A DNA stretch of 17,816 nucleotides, taken from IMG/VR virus record IMGVR_UViG_2939121850_000003; one strand, given 5' to 3'. A program made the position numbers and the translations under genes. Origin of the DNA: a virus (lineage: Duplodnaviria > Heunggongvirae > Uroviricota > Caudoviricetes). Shown here one piece after another: positions 4,705 to 14,619 of this stretch. The notes beneath the pieces were generated by a model that had not been told where the DNA came from, searched no databases, and saw only the letters and a program-made list of their open reading frames with translations. The first letter of the stretch is position 1. The number at the start of each line of letters is the position of its first letter.

Positions 4705-4926
4705 TTGTATCGTGAGATCAGTGATGGAAAAAGTATTACGTACATGATCGCCGGGTTAAATAAAGAATATGGCGATGTGGTGGAATCCGGACTGCTTTTT
4801 GCAGATCCTGCCGTTGTAGATCGTGAAACTGACGAACTTATAGAAAAAGCAATTGCTTTCAAGCTTGCGTATCGACAGCAATACCAACAAAAAGCTGGAT
4901 GGAATTATGAGTCTTCTTTTTGCTGA
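4705..4926 (+). CDS. Possible small early protein (73 aa, TTG start; alternative ATG at 4744)
   Basis: ORF occupies the position of a cro/cII-type gene at the head of the rightward operon and overlaps the next gene start by 20 nt. There is no convincing Shine-Dalgarno and no recognisable motif. Confidence 0.25.
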   Translation: MYREISDGKSITYMIAGLNKEYGDVVESGLLFADPAVVDRETDELIEKAIAFKLAYRQQYQQKAGWNYESSFC

Positions 4927-5872
4927 ACGCCCACTGGTTATAAACACGCAGCTGGCAATGAAAATTGGCTTAAACGAAGCCATTGTTTTGCAACAACTGC
5001 ACTACTGGTTGAGAGATACCAACTCCGGCATGGAATGTGATGGTGTTCGCTGGATTTATAACACAACGGAACAATGGCTGGAACAGTTCCCATTCTGGTC
5101 AGAGTCAACGTTAAAGCGCGCGTTTGCAAGTCTGAAAACGCTGGGGCTTTTGCGTTGTGAAAAGCTCAATAAATCAAAGCGCGATATGACCAATTTCTAC
5201 ACGATCAACTACGGGAGCGAGCTTTTAGATGGTGGCAAATTGAGCGAATCCATCGGTTTAAAATGCGCCGCTCCATCAGGTCAAAATGACACGATGGAAG
5301 AGGTCAAAATGAAACGCTCCATTGGTTCAAAACGACTCAATGTCATCGGGTCAAAATGGCCTGATGATCTTACAGAGAATACAACAGAGATTACTACAGA
5401 GAATAAAAAGACTTCTCGTCCGGAAGCTTCGCAACCGGACCCGCAGACGGTTGAACAGGATTTTTTAACCCGACACCCTGACGCGGTTGTGTTCAGTGCG
5501 AAAAAACGCCAGTGGGGCAGCCAGGAAGATTTGGCGTGTGCGCAGTGGATCTGGGGGCGAATCGTGAGTCTTTACGAGCAGGCCGCCAGCGATGATGGCG
5601 AGATTTCGCGACCGAAAGAACCCAACTGGACCGCATGGGCCAACGACGTGCGCACAATGCGGATGCTGGATGGCAGAACTCACAGACAAATTTGTGAAAT
5701 GTTTGGTCGGGTGCAGCGGGATCCATTCTGGGTAAAAAATATCATGAGTCCGTCAAAGCTTCGCGAAAAATGGGATGAACTGGTTATCCGCCTGGGGCGT
5801 TCGTCTGTACAGCGTTGTGTGAATCATATTTCTGAGCCGGATACCGAAATTCCGCCGGGCTTCAGGGGGTAA
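4907..5872 (+). CDS. Replication-initiator-like protein (winged-helix N-terminal domain, phage O / replisome-organiser type)
   Basis: ATG at 4907 gives MSLLFAERPLVINTQLAMKIGLNEAIVLQQLHYWL..., which reads as a winged-helix replication-initiator N-domain. The ORF track start at 4853 is a TTG. The C-terminal region (NWTAWANDVRTMRMLDGRTHRQICEMFG) is basic and DNA-binding-like. Gene order int-xis-exo / control region / rep fits a lambdoid layout. Confidence 0.65.
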   Translation: MSLLFAERPLVINTQLAMKIGLNEAIVLQQLHYWLRDTNSGMECDGVRWIYNTTEQWLEQFPFWSESTLKRAFASLKTLGLLRCEKLNKSKRDMTNFYTINYGSELLDGGKLSESIGLKCAAPSGQNDTMEEVKMKRSIGSKRLNVIGSKWPDDLTENTTEITTENKKTSRPEASQPDPQTVEQDFLTRHPDAVVFSAKKRQWGSQEDLACAQWIWGRIVSLYEQAASDDGEISRPKEPNWTAWANDVRTMRMLDGRTHRQICEMFGRVQRDPFWVKNIMSPSKLREKWDELVIRLGRSSVQRCVNHISEPDTEIPPGFRG

Positions 5873-5912
5873 GTGTTAATTTCTGGTCATGAGGTAATTT
5901 TCAGGAGGGCTT

Positions 5913-6335
5913 GTGGCAAAAGTTTTTACACAAGAAGAGCGGGAAAAAATTAAAGGGCAGGTTGTTGAACTCGTACGCCGGAGTGGGCGTGAGACGTTAC
6001 GGCAACTGGAAGTCAAGACAGGTGCGACAAGATATCTGATGAGCGTTCTCGCAAGAGAGCTGGTTGCCAGCGGCGATGTATACAACTCTGGTTACGGGTT
6101 ATTCCCGTCTGAACAGGCGCGTAAGGACTGGCAAAATGCCCGTAAAAAGCTCTCAAGGGCAAAGCTGAAGGAACCATCTGCGGTTGATCCGGACCTTATC
6201 TGGTCATTACCTGACGGAGAAATACGTCGTTACGACAGGCGTCATAATATGATTTGTACTGAGTGTCGTAAAAGCGAAGTTATGCAGCGCATATTGTCGT
6301 TTTATCAGGGGGATGTCCGGTATTTATTGAAGTGA
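5913..6335 (+). CDS. Hypothetical protein (140 aa), possible DNA-binding protein
   Basis: GTG start at 5913 preceded by a strong Shine-Dalgarno (cAGGAGGg at 5902-5909). Lies 41 bp after the rep-like gene, so probably co-transcribed. N-terminal segment ETLRQLEVKTGATRYLMSVLAREL looks HTH-like. Confidence 0.65.
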   Translation: MAKVFTQEEREKIKGQVVELVRRSGRETLRQLEVKTGATRYLMSVLARELVASGDVYNSGYGLFPSEQARKDWQNARKKLSRAKLKEPSAVDPDLIWSLPDGEIRRYDRRHNMICTECRKSEVMQRILSFYQGDVRYLLK

Positions 6336-6403
6336 CGAGATTAAAGTGCATTAGTTCAGATGCAAATTGACATTTTGTGGCACAGGGTAGAGCTAGCGTG
6401 GTT

Positions 6404-6427
6404 GTCCGCTTTGTGCCAAGAGCGGAC
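6404..6427 (+). repeat. 24-bp palindromic junction element, copy A (GTCCGCTTTGTGCCAAGAGCGGAC)
   Basis: 7-bp perfect stem GTCCGCT/AGCGGAC with 10-nt loop, between convergent genes (5913-6335 plus, 6465-7409 minus). 22/24 identical to copy B at 7620-7643. Confidence 0.8.
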
Positions 6428-6464
6428 TTTGCAAAATGGGGGTTATTTCAATCAAAACGTAACG

Positions 6465-7409
6465 TCACAACCAGCCGACGCTCTCTCGCCATTTATAATT
6501 AGTAACTTTATCATTTTCGCTTATTTTTTTAGATATAGAGCGCGGCTCTCTTCCTAGATACTCAGATATTTCTATCGGGGACAAATCAAAATCAACAAGC
6601 ATGACTCTAAGTTTTTCCATTTCCTTTAAAGTCCAAGGCTTGCCATAATTTTCATAAAGAGATACCTTATGCTCCCTGATAGTTCGCTTTCTCTGAGTTT
6701 CACTTTCCCTCTGAAAAATCTCGCTTTTAAATTGTGAACGGAACTCTTTACAGAAGTTGTTATCAGTTTTTTTGTTATATAGATTGCTAAAAATAAGCTG
6801 GGATGCCGGGTCTAAATCAGGTGTGTTAATAATGAAAACTTTGACCTTTTCCATATAGGGATATTCAATTTTACCCAATATGCTTAATTGCTTTATATTA
6901 AAAAAACCTCTCAAATCAAAAGATTTAATGAGCTTTGATTGGATTACACTTTCAATCCTGCTTGCATTTAAATAACAGTACTTTGCCATTGGAAGGGCCC
7001 ATACTACCAGTTGAGGAATATATTTTTCTAATGCAATGCTCTGCCAATCAGTATCAAAGGTTTGGCTTTTTGCTAGCATGTTTTTCGGCAAATCAGAATA
7101 CATTGTGGTAGATGCCCATATCTTATAATCATTCGCCAAGGCTTGATAGTATTTTGTGTGGTTATGAATTTTATAAGCTGACATGAAGCGATAAACGTCT
7201 TCGTCGTGACCAGCGTCGTAAATTGTTCGATTTCCTCTAAGATAACCGTCGTAATGTTCGGTTATCCTTCTACCTACATTACAACTTACCCCAACGTAAA
7301 CCACACGACTGAAAAGTCCTTTATGGACAATAAGATAAACTCCGCTACAGCCAGATTTCCTGGCCTCTGATAGAGAACCTAAAAATCTCCATTCCATAAT
7401 TAAATCCAT
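6465..7409 (-). CDS. GIY-YIG nuclease-domain protein (314 aa) with C-terminal HTH-like region
   Basis: N-terminal GVYLIVHKG...VVYVGVSCNVGRRITEHY matches the GIY-(N10)-YIG-(x)N...R...H nuclease signature. C-terminal WTLKEMEKLRVMLVDFDLSPIEISEYLGREPRSISKKI looks like a DNA-binding helix-turn-helix. The gene is strongly AT-rich relative to the flanking prophage genes (by eye). Confidence 0.8.
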   Translation of the reverse strand: MDLIMEWRFLGSLSEARKSGCSGVYLIVHKGLFSRVVYVGVSCNVGRRITEHYDGYLRGNRTIYDAGHDEDVYRFMSAYKIHNHTKYYQALANDYKIWASTTMYSDLPKNMLAKSQTFDTDWQSIALEKYIPQLVVWALPMAKYCYLNASRIESVIQSKLIKSFDLRGFFNIKQLSILGKIEYPYMEKVKVFIINTPDLDPASQLIFSNLYNKKTDNNFCKEFRSQFKSEIFQRESETQRKRTIREHKVSLYENYGKPWTLKEMEKLRVMLVDFDLSPIEISEYLGREPRSISKKISENDKVTNYKWRESVGWL

Positions 7410-7577
7410 AATTATTGCTACTGTTTTTGTTTATCATTATTTTCGTGAAACTTCAACAATTTTATCCAAAAGCTAAGGGCAAAGACTTATATAATTATAC
7501 TTGTCATCGTTAGCGATTATATAGAGTAGTGGCGCTGACCTGCTCCCTGGTGATTCACACAGAATGCTGTTAGTAAT

Positions 7578-7643
7578 GTCCGTTCCTCGCTCTCAGCGGA
7601 CCTTCAGCTCAGTGATATCGTCCGCTCTGTGCAAAGAGCGGAC
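7578..7643 (+). repeat. Two tandem copies of the 24-bp junction element (B0 7578-7601 GTCCGTTCCTCGCTCTCAGCGGAC; B 7620-7643 GTCCGCTCTGTGCAAAGAGCGGAC)
   Basis: Read directly. B forms a 9-bp perfect stem with a 6-nt loop. B0 shares the GTCC...GGAC ends and the central CGCTC. Located between the GIY-YIG gene start and the 449-aa gene end. Confidence 0.8.
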
Positions 7644-7956
7644 GTTGGTATGCAAGAGCCCTCCAAAAGTTGATGGTTGGTTTGCAGGGGGGCTTAAAGA
7701 AACTGCACTTATCAAGTTGAAGTTCTGTATTCAGCGAAATCGTAGCACTCTGACGATAAGTAACTCCGGTACTCCGCTCTTCGATGAAGAACCAGAGTAA
7801 TCCCCCCGAAAAACCAGCGCATCAAAATTGGATCTTCAGCGGTAGCTTATCGGCTATCGGAAGTACAGGTGTGGATTCGTGGTGAATTGCTTTGATAATA
7901 AACGATTAATACGGAAAAACGCATTAATCATTTATTAGCTTTTAGTAAACCACAAT

Positions 7957-9306
7957 TTATTCCGTTTTACATATCATAGTAGTCGATTGGAGAATATAGT
8001 TTCTGGGAATGTACTCTTCAAAGTGTTCGTCCTTTTTAAATACATGAACTACATTTGGGAATAATTGATAGTCAACAGGGTGTATAGCGTTTGGATTATG
8101 GTACATGTACATGGCTGTACACCATGGTTCTTGATAGTTAGGGTCACTTACATCGGCTGAAAATGGATGTGGGGCTGCATCCTGATCAGTTTTAACACCA
8201 CTGACGTACACTTTGAATCCACTCGCCTCTACACCTGCAAGAATTCCCATCCGGTTAAACTTAGGTATGGTTGCTTGAGTAGTGAGTAAAACGGCAGAAA
8301 CATAATTATTTTGTTCTGAGCCAAAAAAGTTCGACTTGATACTTCTATTTTCATCTGTATGTCTTTCAATAGAAATGCCTGACTCAATATCAATCCCGTA
8401 CAAATAGCTATGCAAGGCTTCGCTTGAGAAGGCCATGGACATTCTTTTTGAATAATCCTGCATTGCTATGACAAATGGTTTGTTCTTTGTATGGTTGAGT
8501 TCCCAGTAATGAACTTTCTCTGGCTCAGGGCAATGCCGGACTTTTTTTAATAAACTTCTTGCAAACTTAAAAGGCATGACATTTAGAACATGTTTTCTTA
8601 ATTCATCCATCTGTTCATCGTTAATGACTTTTCTTTCAAGAGGGGCTTCTGCTTCAGCAATGCTTACAGCCTCTACAGCAATTTCCACTCCAAATTTAGA
8701 TAGCAGAAAATCTGGTTGATTGTATTCTCTATTCATTTCAAAGTCGAGTTCATAAAATACAGCGTTCAAATATAATTCAAATAACCTTGAATTAAATGCA
8801 TCACTTTGAAAATCCCTTATAAATATTCCATCAGGATCTTTGAACCAGTATGCAAGTTCCTCAAGAACAATATATGCAGGGAAATGAAGAGGGTCTTCGA
8901 GGAGCATTTTTATATAAACATTCCTTTTTTTCGCTGGGACCTTACTCAAGAATAATGAAAAAGGTTTGGTTGATTCATCGCCTTGCATGAATGTACCATT
9001 TTGGTGCTGCGCCAGCATCTTTGGTATGTCATCGTTCAAATTATTAAGCAAGACATCCATTGAATCAAATGAAGCCAAGACGTTTATTGCTCTGAATTTT
9101 TTATCTAAATCCCGACCTAAGACTATTGCGTTAAAATCTTTATCAATATTGCATATGATTATTGTGGATAACAATGTTATCCCATTCCCCTCATATTTAA
9201 ACCAGCGTATCTCCTCAGAAAATGTCTTAAGGTAAGGTGAGCGACCGTAAAAATAAATATCAAATTGTTCTTTGCTGATCTCACTGAAGTGTAATCCTGC
9301 GTTCAT
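7957..9306 (-). CDS. Hypothetical protein (449 aa), no recognisable family
   Basis: Long uninterrupted ORF in the AT-rich block. ATG at 9306 is preceded by AAGGAA about 8 nt upstream on the minus strand. No Walker A, methyltransferase or other signature found by eye. Confidence 0.75.
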   Translation of the reverse strand: MNAGLHFSEISKEQFDIYFYGRSPYLKTFSEEIRWFKYEGNGITLLSTIIICNIDKDFNAIVLGRDLDKKFRAINVLASFDSMDVLLNNLNDDIPKMLAQHQNGTFMQGDESTKPFSLFLSKVPAKKRNVYIKMLLEDPLHFPAYIVLEELAYWFKDPDGIFIRDFQSDAFNSRLFELYLNAVFYELDFEMNREYNQPDFLLSKFGVEIAVEAVSIAEAEAPLERKVINDEQMDELRKHVLNVMPFKFARSLLKKVRHCPEPEKVHYWELNHTKNKPFVIAMQDYSKRMSMAFSSEALHSYLYGIDIESGISIERHTDENRSIKSNFFGSEQNNYVSAVLLTTQATIPKFNRMGILAGVEASGFKVYVSGVKTDQDAAPHPFSADVSDPNYQEPWCTAMYMYHNPNAIHPVDYQLFPNVVHVFKKDEHFEEYIPRNYILQSTTMICKTE

Positions 9307-9428
9307 ACCAATTCCTTTTCAATGAATAATTGGCCTTTAGGAGTGATTCCCTTTGTCTTTAATTCAGTTCTAACTAGTTCTTTAATCCAATAGCCTAAGC
9401 TCATCATGCAGTTGGATCATAAGACAAC

Positions 9429-9457
9429 GCCCTATAGTGCTCGTGATACTATAGGGC
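9429..9457. repeat. Inverted repeat with 10-bp arms and 9-nt spacer (GCCCTATAGT / ACTATAGGGC)
   Basis: Perfect inverted repeat read directly in the divergent intergenic region upstream of the short recombinase gene. Confidence 0.6.
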
Positions 9458-9560
9458 ATCTGACCACACTGTTAACTGGAGTAACGACTATGGCAGGAAT
9501 ACAGCATAACCAAACTCACCCCAAACTTACATAGCGCTTTCTGGCCGTGAGCATAACAAG

Positions 9561-9584
9561 GTCCACTCCTCGCTCATAAGGGAC
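9561..9584 (+). repeat. 24-bp junction element, copy C (GTCCACTCCTCGCTCATAAGGGAC)
   Basis: 18/24 identity to copy B0, including the conserved GTCC 5' end, central TCCTCGCTC and GGAC 3' end. Lies between the 449-aa gene and the recombinase. Confidence 0.6.
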
Positions 9585-9590
9585 AACCAT

Positions 9591-9623
9591 ACTCAAATCT
9601 CCCACATTGCAGGAGATTTGAGT
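9591..9623 (+). promoter_or_regulatory. Perfect 12-bp hairpin sequestering the recombinase Shine-Dalgarno (ACTCAAATCTCC-N9-GGAGATTTGAGT)
   Basis: Right arm 9612-9623 contains GGAG and ends one nucleotide before the ATG at 9624. The architecture (12-bp inverted arms, 9-nt spacer) could alternatively be a protein-binding or recombination core-type site. Confidence 0.6.
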
Positions 9624-10226
9624 ATGAACACGTCACCGTGGAACAAAGACCGTATCATAGGCCAAAAAAGACCACTTCAGATATCTCATATCTGGGGTAT
9701 CCGAATCCGACTTGAACTGGAAGGTAAAACTCGCGATTTAGCTCTGTTCAACATGGCCCTGGATAGTAAGCTTCGAGGCTGTGATCTGGTCAAACTCAAA
9801 GTATCTGATGTTGCATATGGTGGCTCTGTTTCAAGCAGAGCAACGGTGTTGCAACAGAAAACCGGTAGCCCTGTTCAATTTGAGATAACCAAAGGGACAA
9901 GAGAAGCTGTTGCTGCATTGATACAGCTTAGCAATTTGCACAGTAAAGACTTCTTGTTTCGGTCTAGGGTCGGAACTAACCAGCACATTTCAACCCGGCA
10001 ATACAACCGAATCTTTCATGGGGGGGTAGAAAAGCTTGGTCTCGAAGATTCGCTTTACAGCACACATTCCATGAGAAGAACAAAACCTTACCTGATCTAC
10101 AAGAAAACCAAGAATCTCCGGGTGATCCAACTTCTGTTGGGTCATAAGAAACTGGAAAGCACAGTCCGTTATCTGGGCATTGAAGTCGATGATGCGTTAG
10201 AGATTTCTGAATCGATTGAAGTCTAA
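9624..10226 (+). CDS. Short tyrosine recombinase (about 200 aa, FimB/FimE-like catalytic-domain-only integrase)
   Basis: From ATG 9624 (MNTSPW...); the ORF track's 9618 is a TTG. Contains an R box (TRDLALFNMALDSKLRGCDLVKLKVSDV), HSMRRT (H-x-x-R) and LLGHKKLESTVRYLG (GH...Y). Size and motif spacing match the FimB/FimE family of small invertase-type tyrosine recombinases. Confidence 0.8.
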   Translation: MNTSPWNKDRIIGQKRPLQISHIWGIRIRLELEGKTRDLALFNMALDSKLRGCDLVKLKVSDVAYGGSVSSRATVLQQKTGSPVQFEITKGTREAVAALIQLSNLHSKDFLFRSRVGTNQHISTRQYNRIFHGGVEKLGLEDSLYSTHSMRRTKPYLIYKKTKNLRVIQLLLGHKKLESTVRYLGIEVDDALEISESIEV

Positions 10227-10585: not shown

Positions 10586-11566
10586 ATGAAATTTAAGGAC
10601 AAGAACCTTAAGGCTCTCGCGGAATGTATCATAGGAGATAATAAGGCATTTCTGTATCGTTCAAGCAGTCACATCACTGAATTTTTCCAGGACTGCGGCA
10701 TGGATGTTACTCATGACGGATCCACTCGGTGGAAATGGACGGCCCAGAGGCTTGAAGAACTTCTTTATGAGCCACAGTCAAAGCCACATACTTTGCCGGA
10801 AAGGTTTGTTCATGTGCTCAGAACTTTAATGTTAAAAGAAGATGCAATGGATGACGATCCAGGAAGATTAAAGGCGCTTGAAGAACTGAACAAGCCTTTG
10901 ATGCGGGAAGGCTATGAGGCATTCTATGGTGACGATCGCCTTTTGTATATACGCCATACCGATACCAAAACGGTTTCAGTCAGTAATAACCCTCATCGGC
11001 CCTTAACGCCTCACGAAGTAGAATGCAGAAGGTTACTGACCGCGTTTCTTGATACCTGCTCAGAAGATGAGTTAATAGAAGATATTCTCCTTCCTTTATT
11101 CCGGCAACTTGGTTTTCACCGGATAACAGCAGTGGGACATAAAGATAAAGCGCTGGAATACGGGAAAGACATCTGGATGAAGTTCACACTGCCAACTCAG
11201 CATGTTCTTTATTTCGGCATTCAGGCAAAAAAAGGTAAGTTGGATGCGTCCGGTGCCAGCAAATCTACGAATTCAAACGTGGCAGAAATCTTCAACCAGG
11301 TACTGATGATGCTTGGCCATGAAATATTTGACCCAGAAACAAATAGAAAGGTGCTGGTAGATCATGCCTTTATCGTTGCTGGCGGAGAAATTACTAAACA
11401 GGCGAGGAACTGGCTGGGCGGGAAACTTGATGCCAGCAAAAGAAGCCAGATAATATTTATGGACCGGGAAGACATTCTTAATTTATATACTGTAAGTAAT
11501 GTACCTCTGCCAACAGGTGCTCTCATCTCTGATGATGCCGTTAAGAACGATGATATTCCTTTCTAA
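10586..11566 (+). CDS. Protein with C-terminal Mrr-like PD-(D/E)XK restriction-endonuclease-type motif and uncharacterised N-terminal domain (326 aa)
   Basis: ATG at 10586 preceded by gaGGGGGAGa. C-terminal segment ITAVGHKDKALEYGKDIWMKF...HVLYFGIQAKKGK shows the D...(I/V)QxK arrangement of Mrr-type nuclease cores. The N-terminal 170 aa or so have no motif I recognise. Confidence 0.75.
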   Translation: MKFKDKNLKALAECIIGDNKAFLYRSSSHITEFFQDCGMDVTHDGSTRWKWTAQRLEELLYEPQSKPHTLPERFVHVLRTLMLKEDAMDDDPGRLKALEELNKPLMREGYEAFYGDDRLLYIRHTDTKTVSVSNNPHRPLTPHEVECRRLLTAFLDTCSEDELIEDILLPLFRQLGFHRITAVGHKDKALEYGKDIWMKFTLPTQHVLYFGIQAKKGKLDASGASKSTNSNVAEIFNQVLMMLGHEIFDPETNRKVLVDHAFIVAGGEITKQARNWLGGKLDASKRSQIIFMDREDILNLYTVSNVPLPTGALISDDAVKNDDIPF

Positions 11567-11790: not shown

Positions 11791-11814
11791 TTCCGTTTCT
11801 CGCTCAAAGCGGAC
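11791..11814 (+). repeat. 24-bp junction element, copy D (TTCCGTTTCTCGCTCAAAGCGGAC)
   Basis: 20/24 identity to copy B0. Located between the Mrr-like gene and the small-ORF/hok region. Confidence 0.6.
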
Positions 11815-12083: not shown

Positions 12084-12237
12084 TTTTATATTGGCGAGGT
12101 GACGGGAGTTAAGTAGAATTGCTGCGGGTGCTTGAGGCTATCTGCCTCAGGCATGAACACCAAAGGCAGATAGAGAAAAGCCCCAGTTAACATTACGCGT
12201 CCTGCAAGACGTTTAACATTAATCTGAGGCTCAATCT

Positions 12238-12450
12238 ATGAACGGCAAATCTAGGTTAGCCTCTTACGTGCCGAAAGGCAAGGAGAAGCAGGCTATGAAG
12301 CAGCAAAAGGCGATGTTAATCGCCCTGATCGTCATCTGTTTAACCGTCATAATGACGGCACTGGTAACGAGGAAAGACCTCTGCGAGGTACGAATCCGAA
12401 CCGGCCAGACGGAGGTCGCTGTCTTCACAGCTTACGAACCTGAGGAGTAA
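12238..12450 (+). CDS. mok-like in-frame leader extension of the hok gene (70 aa reading frame)
   Basis: The ORF starts 19 codons upstream of the hok start in the same frame, as in chromosomal mok/hok loci. Whether it is translated independently is inferred. Confidence 0.45.
   Translation: MNGKSRLASYVPKGKEKQAMKQQKAMLIALIVICLTVIMTALVTRKDLCEVRIRTGQTEVAVFTAYEPEE
12295..12450 (+). CDS. hokD: Hok/Gef-family type I toxin (51 aa), hokD/relF-type
   Basis: MKQQKAMLIALIVICLTVIMTALVTRKDLCEVRIRTGQTEVAVFTAYEPEE matches my recollection of E. coli HokD (RelF) almost exactly and the Hok family signature (TRKDLCEV...E/TEVAAF). Internal ATG at 12295. Confidence 0.85.
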   Translation: MKQQKAMLIALIVICLTVIMTALVTRKDLCEVRIRTGQTEVAVFTAYEPEE

Positions 12451-13263: not shown

Positions 13264-14619
13264 GTGCGGGTATTACTTCGACCTGTTCTGGTACCGGAAC
13301 TCGGGCTGGTGGTCGTTAAGCCGGGCCGTGAATCCATGCCGGTATTCCACAATACCCGGGTAACCGAAGCGCTCGACACGACATTAGGACTGCTTACAAA
13401 AACAGGACGAGACTGGAACACGCAGCATACTGATAACATTAATAAATTTATACCAATTGCAGGCAGTACAAACGGCCCGGCAGGCTCTATGGTTCTTGGC
13501 GGCATTCATGTTCAATTTAGTAAAAATTATGCTGTGCAGTTCGGAGGCCGCAATTCCGGTTTTTGGGGAAGAACAATTGAAAATGGAACGACACAGGAAT
13601 GGAAGAAATTACTAACAGTAGACGATCTCAATTCATCTACCGATCTTGCTGTCAGGTCATTAACCACATCTAACCCGGTAAAATCTGGCGGAGGGCGAAT
13701 TGATGTCCTTGGAAGCACGTCAGACTATAGCAAAATGGATTGCTTTGTACGTGGGTTTGATAGCACCGGTAATTCTCTCGTGTGGGCGTTGGGTTCATCA
13801 GTCGGCGTAAGTAAGATGCTATCGCTAAAAAATTTCTTTAGCGGAGCTGAGATACTGTTAAATGGTAATGACGGCGCGGTTCAACTCAAAACAGGTGCTG
13901 TTAACGGGGCTACAGCGCAGACGCTCACTATCAACAAGAATGAGGTTAACTCAACCGTTGATTTAACCCTTACAAAGCAATCAGGGACTGGTAATCGTTT
14001 TGTTTTACAGAACTCAGGTAATGCAGAACTACCGTTTTCTGTCAGGGTGTGGGGTTCCAGTACTCGACAAAACGTTTTTGAGGTTGGAACGTCTGCTGCG
14101 TATCTGTTTTATGCGCAAAAAACGTCAGCAGGCCAGTTGTTTGATGTAAATGGCGCTATTAATTGCACAACGCTGAATCAGTCATCAGACCGCGACCTTA
14201 AAGACGATATTCTCGTTATCAGCGACGCGACGAAAGCAATCCGTAAAATGAACGGATACACCTACACGCTCAAGGAAAACGGGATGCCTTATGCTGGCGT
14301 TATTGCACAGGAAGTAATGGAGGCGATACCAGAAGCTGTGGGATCGTTTACTCATTATGGTGAAGAGTTGCAAGGTCCGACCGTTGACGGCAACGAGCTA
14401 CGCGAAGAAACTCGCTATCTTAATGTTGACTACTCCGCCGTGACGGGTTTACTTGTTCAGGTCGCCCGTGAAACAGATGATCGCGTTACCGCGCTGGAAG
14501 AGGAAAACACAACGCTACGTCAAAATCTGGCAACAGCAGGCACCCGGATCAGCACTCTGGAAAATCAGGTAAGCGAACTGGTTGCACTTGTCCGGCAGTT
14601 AACAGGAAGCGAACATTGA
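13264..14619 (+). CDS. Phage tail fibre protein, C-terminal fragment with S74-type intramolecular chaperone domain
   Basis: C-terminal region has the SDxxxK Ser-Lys dyad context (SSDRDLKDDILVISDATKAIRKMNGYTYTL...) and a coiled-coil tail typical of self-cleaving tail-fibre or tailspike chaperone domains. Upstream Gly/Ser/Thr/Asn-rich beta-type repeats. The N-terminus (GTG start, odd MRVLLRPVLVPELG) lacks a tail-attachment domain, so the gene is probably truncated. Confidence 0.75.
   Translation: MRVLLRPVLVPELGLVVVKPGRESMPVFHNTRVTEALDTTLGLLTKTGRDWNTQHTDNINKFIPIAGSTNGPAGSMVLGGIHVQFSKNYAVQFGGRNSGFWGRTIENGTTQEWKKLLTVDDLNSSTDLAVRSLTTSNPVKSGGGRIDVLGSTSDYSKMDCFVRGFDSTGNSLVWALGSSVGVSKMLSLKNFFSGAEILLNGNDGAVQLKTGAVNGATAQTLTINKNEVNSTVDLTLTKQSGTGNRFVLQNSGNAELPFSVRVWGSSTRQNVFEVGTSAAYLFYAQKTSAGQLFDVNGAINCTTLNQSSDRDLKDDILVISDATKAIRKMNGYTYTLKENGMPYAGVIAQEVMEAIPEAVGSFTHYGEELQGPTVDGNELREETRYLNVDYSAVTGLLVQVARETDDRVTALEEENTTLRQNLATAGTRISTLENQVSELVALVRQLTGSEH

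Follow-up and report, generated by a model that had tools for sequence, protein, structure and literature searches.

PD-T7-1 belongs to a set of 21 systems that a functional selection on Escherichia coli isolates brought to light (Vassallo et al. 2022, Nat Microbiol, PMC9519451). It originates from strain ECOR46, consists of one coding sequence, and was cloned under its native promoter (PMC9519451). In that form it conferred protection that was stronger against T-even phages than against T7, with adsorption unaffected; the sole domain hint was a weak HHpred result for residues 171 to 219, with Hjc at 80% probability and other PD-(D/E)xK proteins lower (PMC9519451). PD-T7-1 from strain NILS69, allele unstated, conferred protection against Teseptimavirus in K-12, with small T7 plaques (PMC12409345). 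In the literature retrieved by system name, PD-T7-1 features in no title or abstract and neither a mechanism nor biochemistry was found for it, and a search on DS-16, reported to be paired with PD-T7-1 in phages, yielded nothing usable on its nature. Here we describe a relative encoded on a 17,816-nucleotide (nt) stretch of a Caudoviricetes virus (IMG/VR record IMGVR_UViG_2939121850_000003), referred to as the window throughout. The gene is an open reading frame (ORF) at positions 7957 to 9306 on the minus strand, which starts with ATG and comprises 449 amino acids (aa) plus the stop codon, the same length as the ECOR46 coding sequence. Its product is most probably a functional, stand-alone anti-phage protein of the PD-T7-1 type, carried with its own promoter and no partner gene on a mobile cassette of 1.96 kb that passes among temperate phages, satellites, and chromosomal islands.

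The protein matches the PADLOC profile PDLC04073 (PD-T7-1) from end to end, with residues 8 to 447 aligned to profile positions 2 to 448 of 452 (E = 7.3e-157, 520.7 bits). By this profile assignment the ORF is a member of a known, validated family and hence already known in kind. It also matches PDLC04110 (PD-T7-5; aa 117 to 427, E = 3e-40) and phrog_8571 of PHROGs, a family of unknown function (E = 5e-120). PD-T7-5, from the same study (Vassallo et al. 2022), is likewise a single-protein system with a weak PD-(D/E)xK prediction, and its core and C-terminal domain are homologous to those of the window protein; however, its 346-position profile omits the N-terminal module of about 110 aa, and the window protein reaches only 136.2 bits on it. 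An earlier, sequence-only reading of the window had called the product an orphan with no recognisable domain. The second part is true for Pfam, which matched neither the 449-aa protein nor any of 33 aligned homologues, for NCBIfam, which did not match the 449-aa protein, and for PDB sequences searched with the family profile. The first part is wrong: the exact protein occurs on at least 1,000 contigs, a word-indexed protein search returned 203 relatives across Proteobacteria, and a profile of 33 homologues, run against 1.84 billion cluster representatives, detected 2,753 of them at E ≤ 1e-3, of which 642 reach E ≤ 1e-30. That reading had also guessed at an uncharacterised defence or anti-defence factor of a prophage. 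Defence is borne out by the full-length PD-T7-1 match, obtained through the kind of sensitive profile search it had proposed, and by the 59% of residues shared with the validated allele type; "uncharacterised" is not, the family being known, and no evidence points toward an anti-defence role. What it had named as speaking against its guess was not encountered, as there is no homology to housekeeping or structural phage proteins, conservation is wide, and the gene is not pseudogenised.

The window gene was compared with the validated ECOR46 gene by means of the published cloning primers. The forward primer has two mismatches in the window (9424 to 9441) and the reverse primer is absent; both fail also in four further loci with the window allele (L002 to L005), which rules out that the two 449-aa genes are one and the same. 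Exact matches to both primers, 1,699 bp apart, were found only in E. coli SCU-316 (locus L006), where the gene between them is 99 to 100% identical to protein P0058; P0058 and L006 therefore serve here as stand-ins for the ECOR46 allele. P0058 is collinear with the window protein, with 59.3% identity over 445 of 449 aa, and scores slightly lower on the PD-T7-1 profile (506.9 bits). In sequence terms, the window gene is accordingly a different allele, its product being a full-length, collinear relative with 41% divergence from the validated protein. The SCU-316 copy of the ECOR46-type allele carries two frameshifts. Beyond length, collinearity, and the end-to-end match to the same profile, the window form shares with ECOR46 PD-T7-1 a convergent alpA neighbour, a mobile-element context, and the lack of a methyltransferase or other conserved partner; it differs in that an intact 64-aa upstream ORF resembling ribbon-helix-helix (RHH)/HicB proteins is deleted together with the promoter region of that ORF, and in its location in a hairpin-bounded cassette of a Qin-like lambdoid prophage rather than in an integrase-alpA-primase satellite. 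A role in defence is thus well supported by homology. Protection against T7-like and T-even phages with unaffected adsorption would be expected by analogy, these properties being carried over from the 59%-identical relative and from the unstated PD-T7-1 allele.

The ORF had been described as long and intact, with good translation signals, and this was verified. The ATG is preceded at a distance of 5 nt by the ribosome-binding site AAGGAA (9312 to 9317, minus strand, by direct reading), and the chance of 449 stop-free codons at the ORF's own composition is approximately 3e-15. The AT-rich block in which it had been placed is real as well, the GC content being 0.366 for the ORF versus 0.433 for the whole window. 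The window allele is present in 200 of 5,426 complete E. coli genomes (192 at ≥99% and 8 at 95 to 99% nucleotide identity), and a copy of approximately 67% identity is present in two further E. coli genomes, one of which, SCU-316, was examined and is of the ECOR46 type. Copies with 98 to 99.6% protein identity are carried by Escherichia phage mEp460_ev081, Yersinia phage vB_YpM_46, and Morganella phage IME1369_01. Compared with the most diverged close alleles from other contexts, the ratio of nonsynonymous to synonymous substitution rates (dN/dS) is 0.11 to 0.16 with zero stop codons; the gene is under purifying selection. Occasional inactivation occurs, as a few genomes (NZ_CM177078.1, NZ_LT594504.1, NZ_CP087570.1) have an IS1 insertion or a two-ORF or frameshifted allele. 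In Pseudomonas fluorescens HK44 (locus L133), a homologue of PD-T7-1 with 51% identity shares 4 nt with the end of a reverse-transcriptase (RVT_1) gene (4748 to 6004 and 6001 to 7410), and the pair is flanked by two resolvase genes; this arrangement may be a reverse transcriptase-associated variant of the PD-T7-1 system.

The window is a Qin-like lambdoid prophage adjoining rspAB, and its first 13.4 kb match E. coli 042 at 100% identity. The part of it common to every other context extends from 7620 to 9584 (1.96 kb, 98.4 to 99.6% identity). Its limits coincide with two of the "junction elements" mentioned in the sequence-only reading, which proved to be real, imperfect palindromes of 24 nt (starting at 7578, 7620, and 9561). 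The 3′-side end of the cassette is a type A palindrome (GTCCGCTCTGTGCAAAGAGCGGAC; 7620 to 7643, unstranded), with homology to other loci beginning at 7620 (L003, L008, L009) or 7624 (L002); the 5′-side end is a type B palindrome (GTCCACTCCTCGCTCATAAGGGAC; 9561 to 9584, unstranded), with homology to other contexts stopping at 9576 to 9585. In a P2-like phage, homology opens at the first base of A and closes within B. The best promoter candidate for the gene in a consensus scan, a sigma-70-like match (TTAACA, 16 nt, TATAGT; 10/12; 9448 to 9475, minus strand), falls within the conserved cassette. A perfect 9-bp inverted repeat, CCCTATAGT-N9-ACTATAGGG (9431 to 9457, unstranded), overlaps the −10 hexamer, and the validated locus L006 has an inverted repeat at the matching place with different arms (ACGCCCTG/CAGGGCGT).

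Two remnants flank the gene inside the cassette. On the upstream side, 24 codons remain from the end of the small RHH/HicB-like ORF (9333 to 9404, minus strand; 70.8% identity to aa 41 to 64 of the L006 ORF by tblastn). This ORF is intact, with 64 aa, upstream of the validated allele (L006, 7759 to 7953), and it is intact beside a Serratia homologue (L135, 5800 to 5979), whereas it is cut to 24 codons also in L002, L003, L008, and L009, as in all window-type cassettes; these are nevertheless conserved in viable phages. The small ORF gives weak, sub-threshold Pfam matches to HicB and Arc, and its intact form is named HicB-family antitoxin in RefSeq. With only 24 codons left, the window gene has no intact adjacent antitoxin of the kind found in HicAB-type or other toxin-antitoxin pairs. 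On the convergent side, the last 26 codons of an alpA pseudogene remain (7815 to 7895, plus strand; annotated by RefSeq in E. coli 042, whose sequence is identical), with 87.5% identity to the AlpA of L006 by tblastn. Full-length alpA occupies the same position in L006 and L135, beside an integrase in a satellite or island; the fragment is a relic of such an integrase-alpA context, and because homologues lie beside full alpA and integrase genes there, the window cassette looks like a trimmed derivative of that arrangement. The defence gene is the only intact ORF of the cassette and occurs alone in L003 to L005, L008, and L009, and the neighbours of distant homologues are mutually unrelated, i.e., the gene moves singly and with no conserved partner. 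Since the clone of Vassallo et al. also contained the intact 64-aa RHH-like ORF, the single gene was not strictly isolated in that experiment. The cassette resembles the "morons" and defence hotspots of temperate phages and satellites (P2 Z/fun, old/tin, the P4 hotspot) as a self-contained gene with its own promoter-like site, placed between conserved phage modules in a slot shared by many alternative defence cargos; it differs from them in being delimited to the base by two conserved 24-nt palindromes that travel with the cargo into unrelated backbones, a feature for which the literature searched yielded no description.

Structure prediction, also proposed in the earlier reading, produced a confident three-part AlphaFold model from the 33-sequence alignment (mean predicted local distance difference test, 89.8; predicted template modelling score, 0.89). 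The N-terminal module (approximately aa 1 to 110; positions 8977 to 9306, minus strand) consists of a four-stranded sheet and two helices in the model, and F15, R22, W35, D55, D57, R65, D66, F71, R72, Q108, and D110 are invariant in the alignment. In protein P0198 this module is found at the C terminus, residues 10 to 103 of the window protein matching 365 to 456 of P0198, and it is absent from relatives of approximately 350 aa and from the PD-T7-5 profile match; being C-terminal in some relatives and missing in others, it is separable, as expected of a regulatory or recognition module. Domain permutation within the one family was seen in P0198, P0219, and similar proteins, and other relatives (P0217, P0277) were noted as well. 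The central part (approximately aa 165 to 356; 8239 to 8814, minus strand) is predicted to form a restriction-endonuclease-like core, with a helix at 171 to 186, strands at 190 to 192, 200 to 204, and 207 to 216, a helix at 230 to 257, and a strand at 278 to 284, an order that, in the model, matches that of restriction-endonuclease-like nucleases. Its invariant residues are E177 in helix 1, P198-D199 at the start of strand 2, E212-A213 in strand 3, K255 at the end of helix 2, and D284; E177, D199, and E212 are retained down to 33% identity, and R174 is at least 90% conserved. A beta-rich C-terminal domain follows (approximately aa 357 to 449; 7960 to 8238, minus strand; alignment and model), which is common to the PD-T7-5 profile and has G370, E393, W395, H403-N404-P405, P410, and F416 as invariants. 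Foldseek returned nothing from the PDB at E ≤ 1e-3, no domain strongly matching a solved structure; the top matches (Rad50 and others) had a TM-score of about 0.1 and were dismissed as noise.

In the PD-(D/E)xK superfamily, the signature lysine can be replaced or relocated to a neighbouring element. That the central domain is a nuclease of this type using E177, D199, and E212 is a proposal on which we are evenly divided. Two related observations weigh against it: the canonical signature E...(P)D...(D/E)-x-K fails at the lysine, and only there, and position 214, where this residue belongs, is occupied by V, T, or A throughout the 33 sequences. Because the lysine is missing in every homologue, the protein was not filed as a canonical PD-(D/E)xK member. 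From the Hjc resolvase, XisH-like 2okf, CdiA-CT toxins, Shedu SduA, HamA, and NucC, all PD-(D/E)xK nucleases, it differs in having no lysine two residues past the strand-3 glutamate, no match at the sequence level, and two extra conserved domains, its nuclease activity being only predicted. If the core is active, K255 or R174 could take the place of the missing lysine, and the enzyme would, once infection has occurred, cut nucleic acid of the phage or, as an abortive response, that of the cell. Neither a methyltransferase nor any other conserved neighbour is present that might mark self; discrimination between self and non-self must therefore be intrinsic to the protein or arise from infection-dependent activation, and for the same reason target or trigger recognition may be assigned to the movable N-terminal module and the C-terminal beta domain.

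The missing lysine would also suit a core that is catalytically dead or no phosphodiesterase at all, in which case the protein would bind or sequester a phage component or use an unrecognised active site in its N- or C-terminal part. Polar residues are indeed invariant in both, namely D55-x-D57, R65-D66, F71-R72, and Q108-G-D110 in the N-terminal module and E393, W395, and H403-N404-P405 in the C-terminal domain, and the lack of a strong structural match for any domain would fit too. We nevertheless regard this alternative as unlikely, since the invariance of E177, D199, and E212 down to 33% identity fits a metal-binding site, and a lysine that can be replaced or moved in the superfamily leaves room for invariant K255 or highly conserved R174 to serve. 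A different kind of doubt is raised by the small ORF, which is intact beside the validated allele and the Serratia homologue, reduced to 24 codons here, and labelled an antitoxin in RefSeq: the gene might be a toxin-like abortive module that has lost its cognate RHH/HicB-like regulator and survives as a silenced relic or an unregulated toxin without working defence. Yet the truncated form is conserved in 200 genomes and three viable phages with the low dN/dS given above and no stops, which would be unexpected for a relic or an uncontrolled toxin. Moreover, the small ORF resembles a DNA-binding RHH protein, suggesting a transcriptional regulator rather than a neutralising antitoxin, and distant homologues do without it; we consider such a loss of control very improbable.

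The remaining alternative, raised in the earlier reading, is joint function with the downstream gene on the same strand (6465 to 7409, minus strand, 314 aa), whose GIY-YIG match is sub-threshold (E = 0.017). The stated distance of 547 bp is correct, both products are nuclease-like, and an entire 5.2-kb block with the two genes is retained in 180 complete E. coli genomes, as a two-gene defence system might require. Against this, the gap holds a B palindrome (7578 to 7601), an A palindrome (7620 to 7643), and the opposite-strand alpA fragment. The co-occurrence analysis suggested in that reading was run across the complete E. coli genomes and gave 200 genomes with the PD-T7-1 gene and 288 with the GIY-YIG gene, so that each occurs without the other, and the full block is missing in 20 of the 200; the 180 shared blocks are 100% identical among the matches listed, consistent with clonal descent. 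No GIY-YIG gene adjoins the PD-T7-1 gene in L003 to L005, in mEp460_ev081, or in the P2-like Yersinia phage. Specifically, the PD-T7-1 cassette stands alone between a DUF977 gene and hok in three other lambdoid prophages and in mEp460_ev081. In the P2-like Yersinia phage it is again unaccompanied, with the tail-fibre side and the sheath gene FI as its two flanks, and its neighbour in strain DLI.5a is a type II restriction-modification pair. Conversely, the GIY-YIG gene of STEC17-190 (L007) abuts the short integrase described below with no PD-T7-1 gene between them. The two genes are neighbouring cassettes and not an operon; joint function thus finds no support, the independent function that had been offered as the other option agrees with these contexts, and a two-gene system is extremely unlikely. 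The 314-aa protein has its own A...B cassette, a C-terminal stretch that looks helix-turn-helix-like by eye, and cluster members in Salmonella and Erwinia, but PADLOC gave no convincing match for it; it may represent a free-standing endonuclease of the homing type or else a defence gene that has so far gone unrecognised.

The palindromes extend beyond this gene. The window contains five, at 6404 to 6427 (A), 7578 to 7601 (B), 7620 to 7643 (A), 9561 to 9584 (B), and 11791 to 11814 (B), which share the stem GTCCGCT/AGCGGAC and fall into two loop types with the consensus sequences GTCCGCT-nTGTGCCAAn-AGCGGAC (A) and GTCCGCT-nTGAGCGAAn-AGCGGAC (B). Along the window, A (6404) is followed by the GIY-YIG gene, B (7578), A (7620), the PD-T7-1 gene, B (9561), the short integrase with a 326-aa gene, and B (11791). 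Elements are also present in L002, L003, and L007 to L010, and a degenerate-pattern search detected them on more than 120 viral contigs, 80 of which (L011 to L090) were used for counting. Adjacent elements in these 80 contigs were arranged as A+...B− or its reverse complement, 1.0 to 6.2 kb apart, in 53 of 80 pairs, and abutting cassettes meet in a B-then-A junction about 18 nt apart. The 51 cassettes represent 26 cargo clusters; at least eight cargos match known or candidate defence families, including, besides PD-T7-1, PDC-S39, Hp1/Hp2, a Thoeris ThsB TIR protein, HEC-08, a SIR2 protein, an HNH effector, and PDC-S33, and others have no match or look metabolic, with either orientation occurring. 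At 28 lambdoid loci, the conserved backbone ends one base before A and resumes within 1 to 2 bases after B. The PD-T7-1 cassette itself is shared by lambdoid and P2-like phages and by chromosomal islands, homology breaking at or within the elements.

Intrinsic terminators were discarded as an explanation of the palindromes because no T-run follows on either strand. Integron gene cassettes were rejected too: the ends are two different 24-nt palindromes instead of one attC site (57 to 141 bp with R″/L″/L′/R′ boxes), the adjacent recombinase of 200 to 202 aa is far under integron-integrase cut-offs, and cargo occurs in either orientation. The palindromes match no Rfam family at the gathering threshold, no known repeat family was identified, and no description of the sequences was found in the literature searched. 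A 2026 analysis of P2/P4 hotspots states the mechanism of defence exchange between unrelated elements to be unresolved. That the palindrome-bounded units constitute a dedicated exchange of defence-gene cassettes between unrelated mobile elements is a tentative idea to which we assign a low probability; exchange might proceed by site-specific recombination, for which the co-located 200-aa tyrosine recombinase is a candidate, or by short-homology recombination through phage recombinases. The pattern would likewise be accounted for by simple short-homology recombination at conserved hairpins, and the cassette-element system is a lead, not a result.

The short integrase, a tyrosine recombinase of 200 to 202 aa, is encoded next to the defence cassette (9618/9624 to 10226, plus strand) and consists solely of the catalytic domain. 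Its GGAG motif and start codon are covered by a 15-bp inverted repeat with perfect arms (9588 to 9602 and 9612 to 9626). Homologues with 90 to 95% nucleotide identity are present in roughly 900 E. coli genomes. Their flanks are variable and nuclease- or defence-like; L007, for instance, has a restriction endonuclease there, and L010 has a reverse transcriptase together with a dynamin-like protein and HEC-08. Downstream of the short recombinase, the 326-aa ORF (10586 to 11566, plus strand) matched nothing in Pfam, NCBIfam, PHROGs, PADLOC, or PDB sequences; its slot is occupied by an annotated restriction endonuclease in L007, a D...QAK stretch recalls Mrr-type nucleases by eye, and the ORF may be an unrecognised defence gene. 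Rfam matches the window at a single place, namely the sok antitoxin RNA belonging to a hok/sok module (12126 to 12300, plus strand, 111.7 bits), which adjoins hokD in the 042 annotation. Relative to E. coli 042, approximately 6 kb are missing at 13361/13362 (L001, 15964 to 21997), comprising DUF968, rusA, the Q antiterminator, three tRNAs, and holin and tail remnants in 042; the deletion point lies inside a 451-aa S74-peptidase tail-fibre-like ORF (13264 to 14619). The prophage is a decayed remnant.

A protein listed in RefSeq as hypothetical can now be named as a PD-T7-1-family defence gene, which adds little that is new on the gene itself. It is prophage-borne in about 4% of complete E. coli genomes, in a block that is 100% identical among the matches listed, the majority of which come from human isolates, and is relevant for predicting phage susceptibility, e.g., in phage therapy with T7-like or T-even phages. 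Experimental handles on the mechanism of the family are provided by the core without the signature lysine, the movable module that is N-terminal, C-terminal, or absent, and the dispensable upstream RHH ORF. The hairpin-bounded cassette system is a more interesting lead than an ordinary defence gene, as the cassette boundaries touch on the question of how defence genes are passed among the hotspots of unrelated phages, satellites, and islands.

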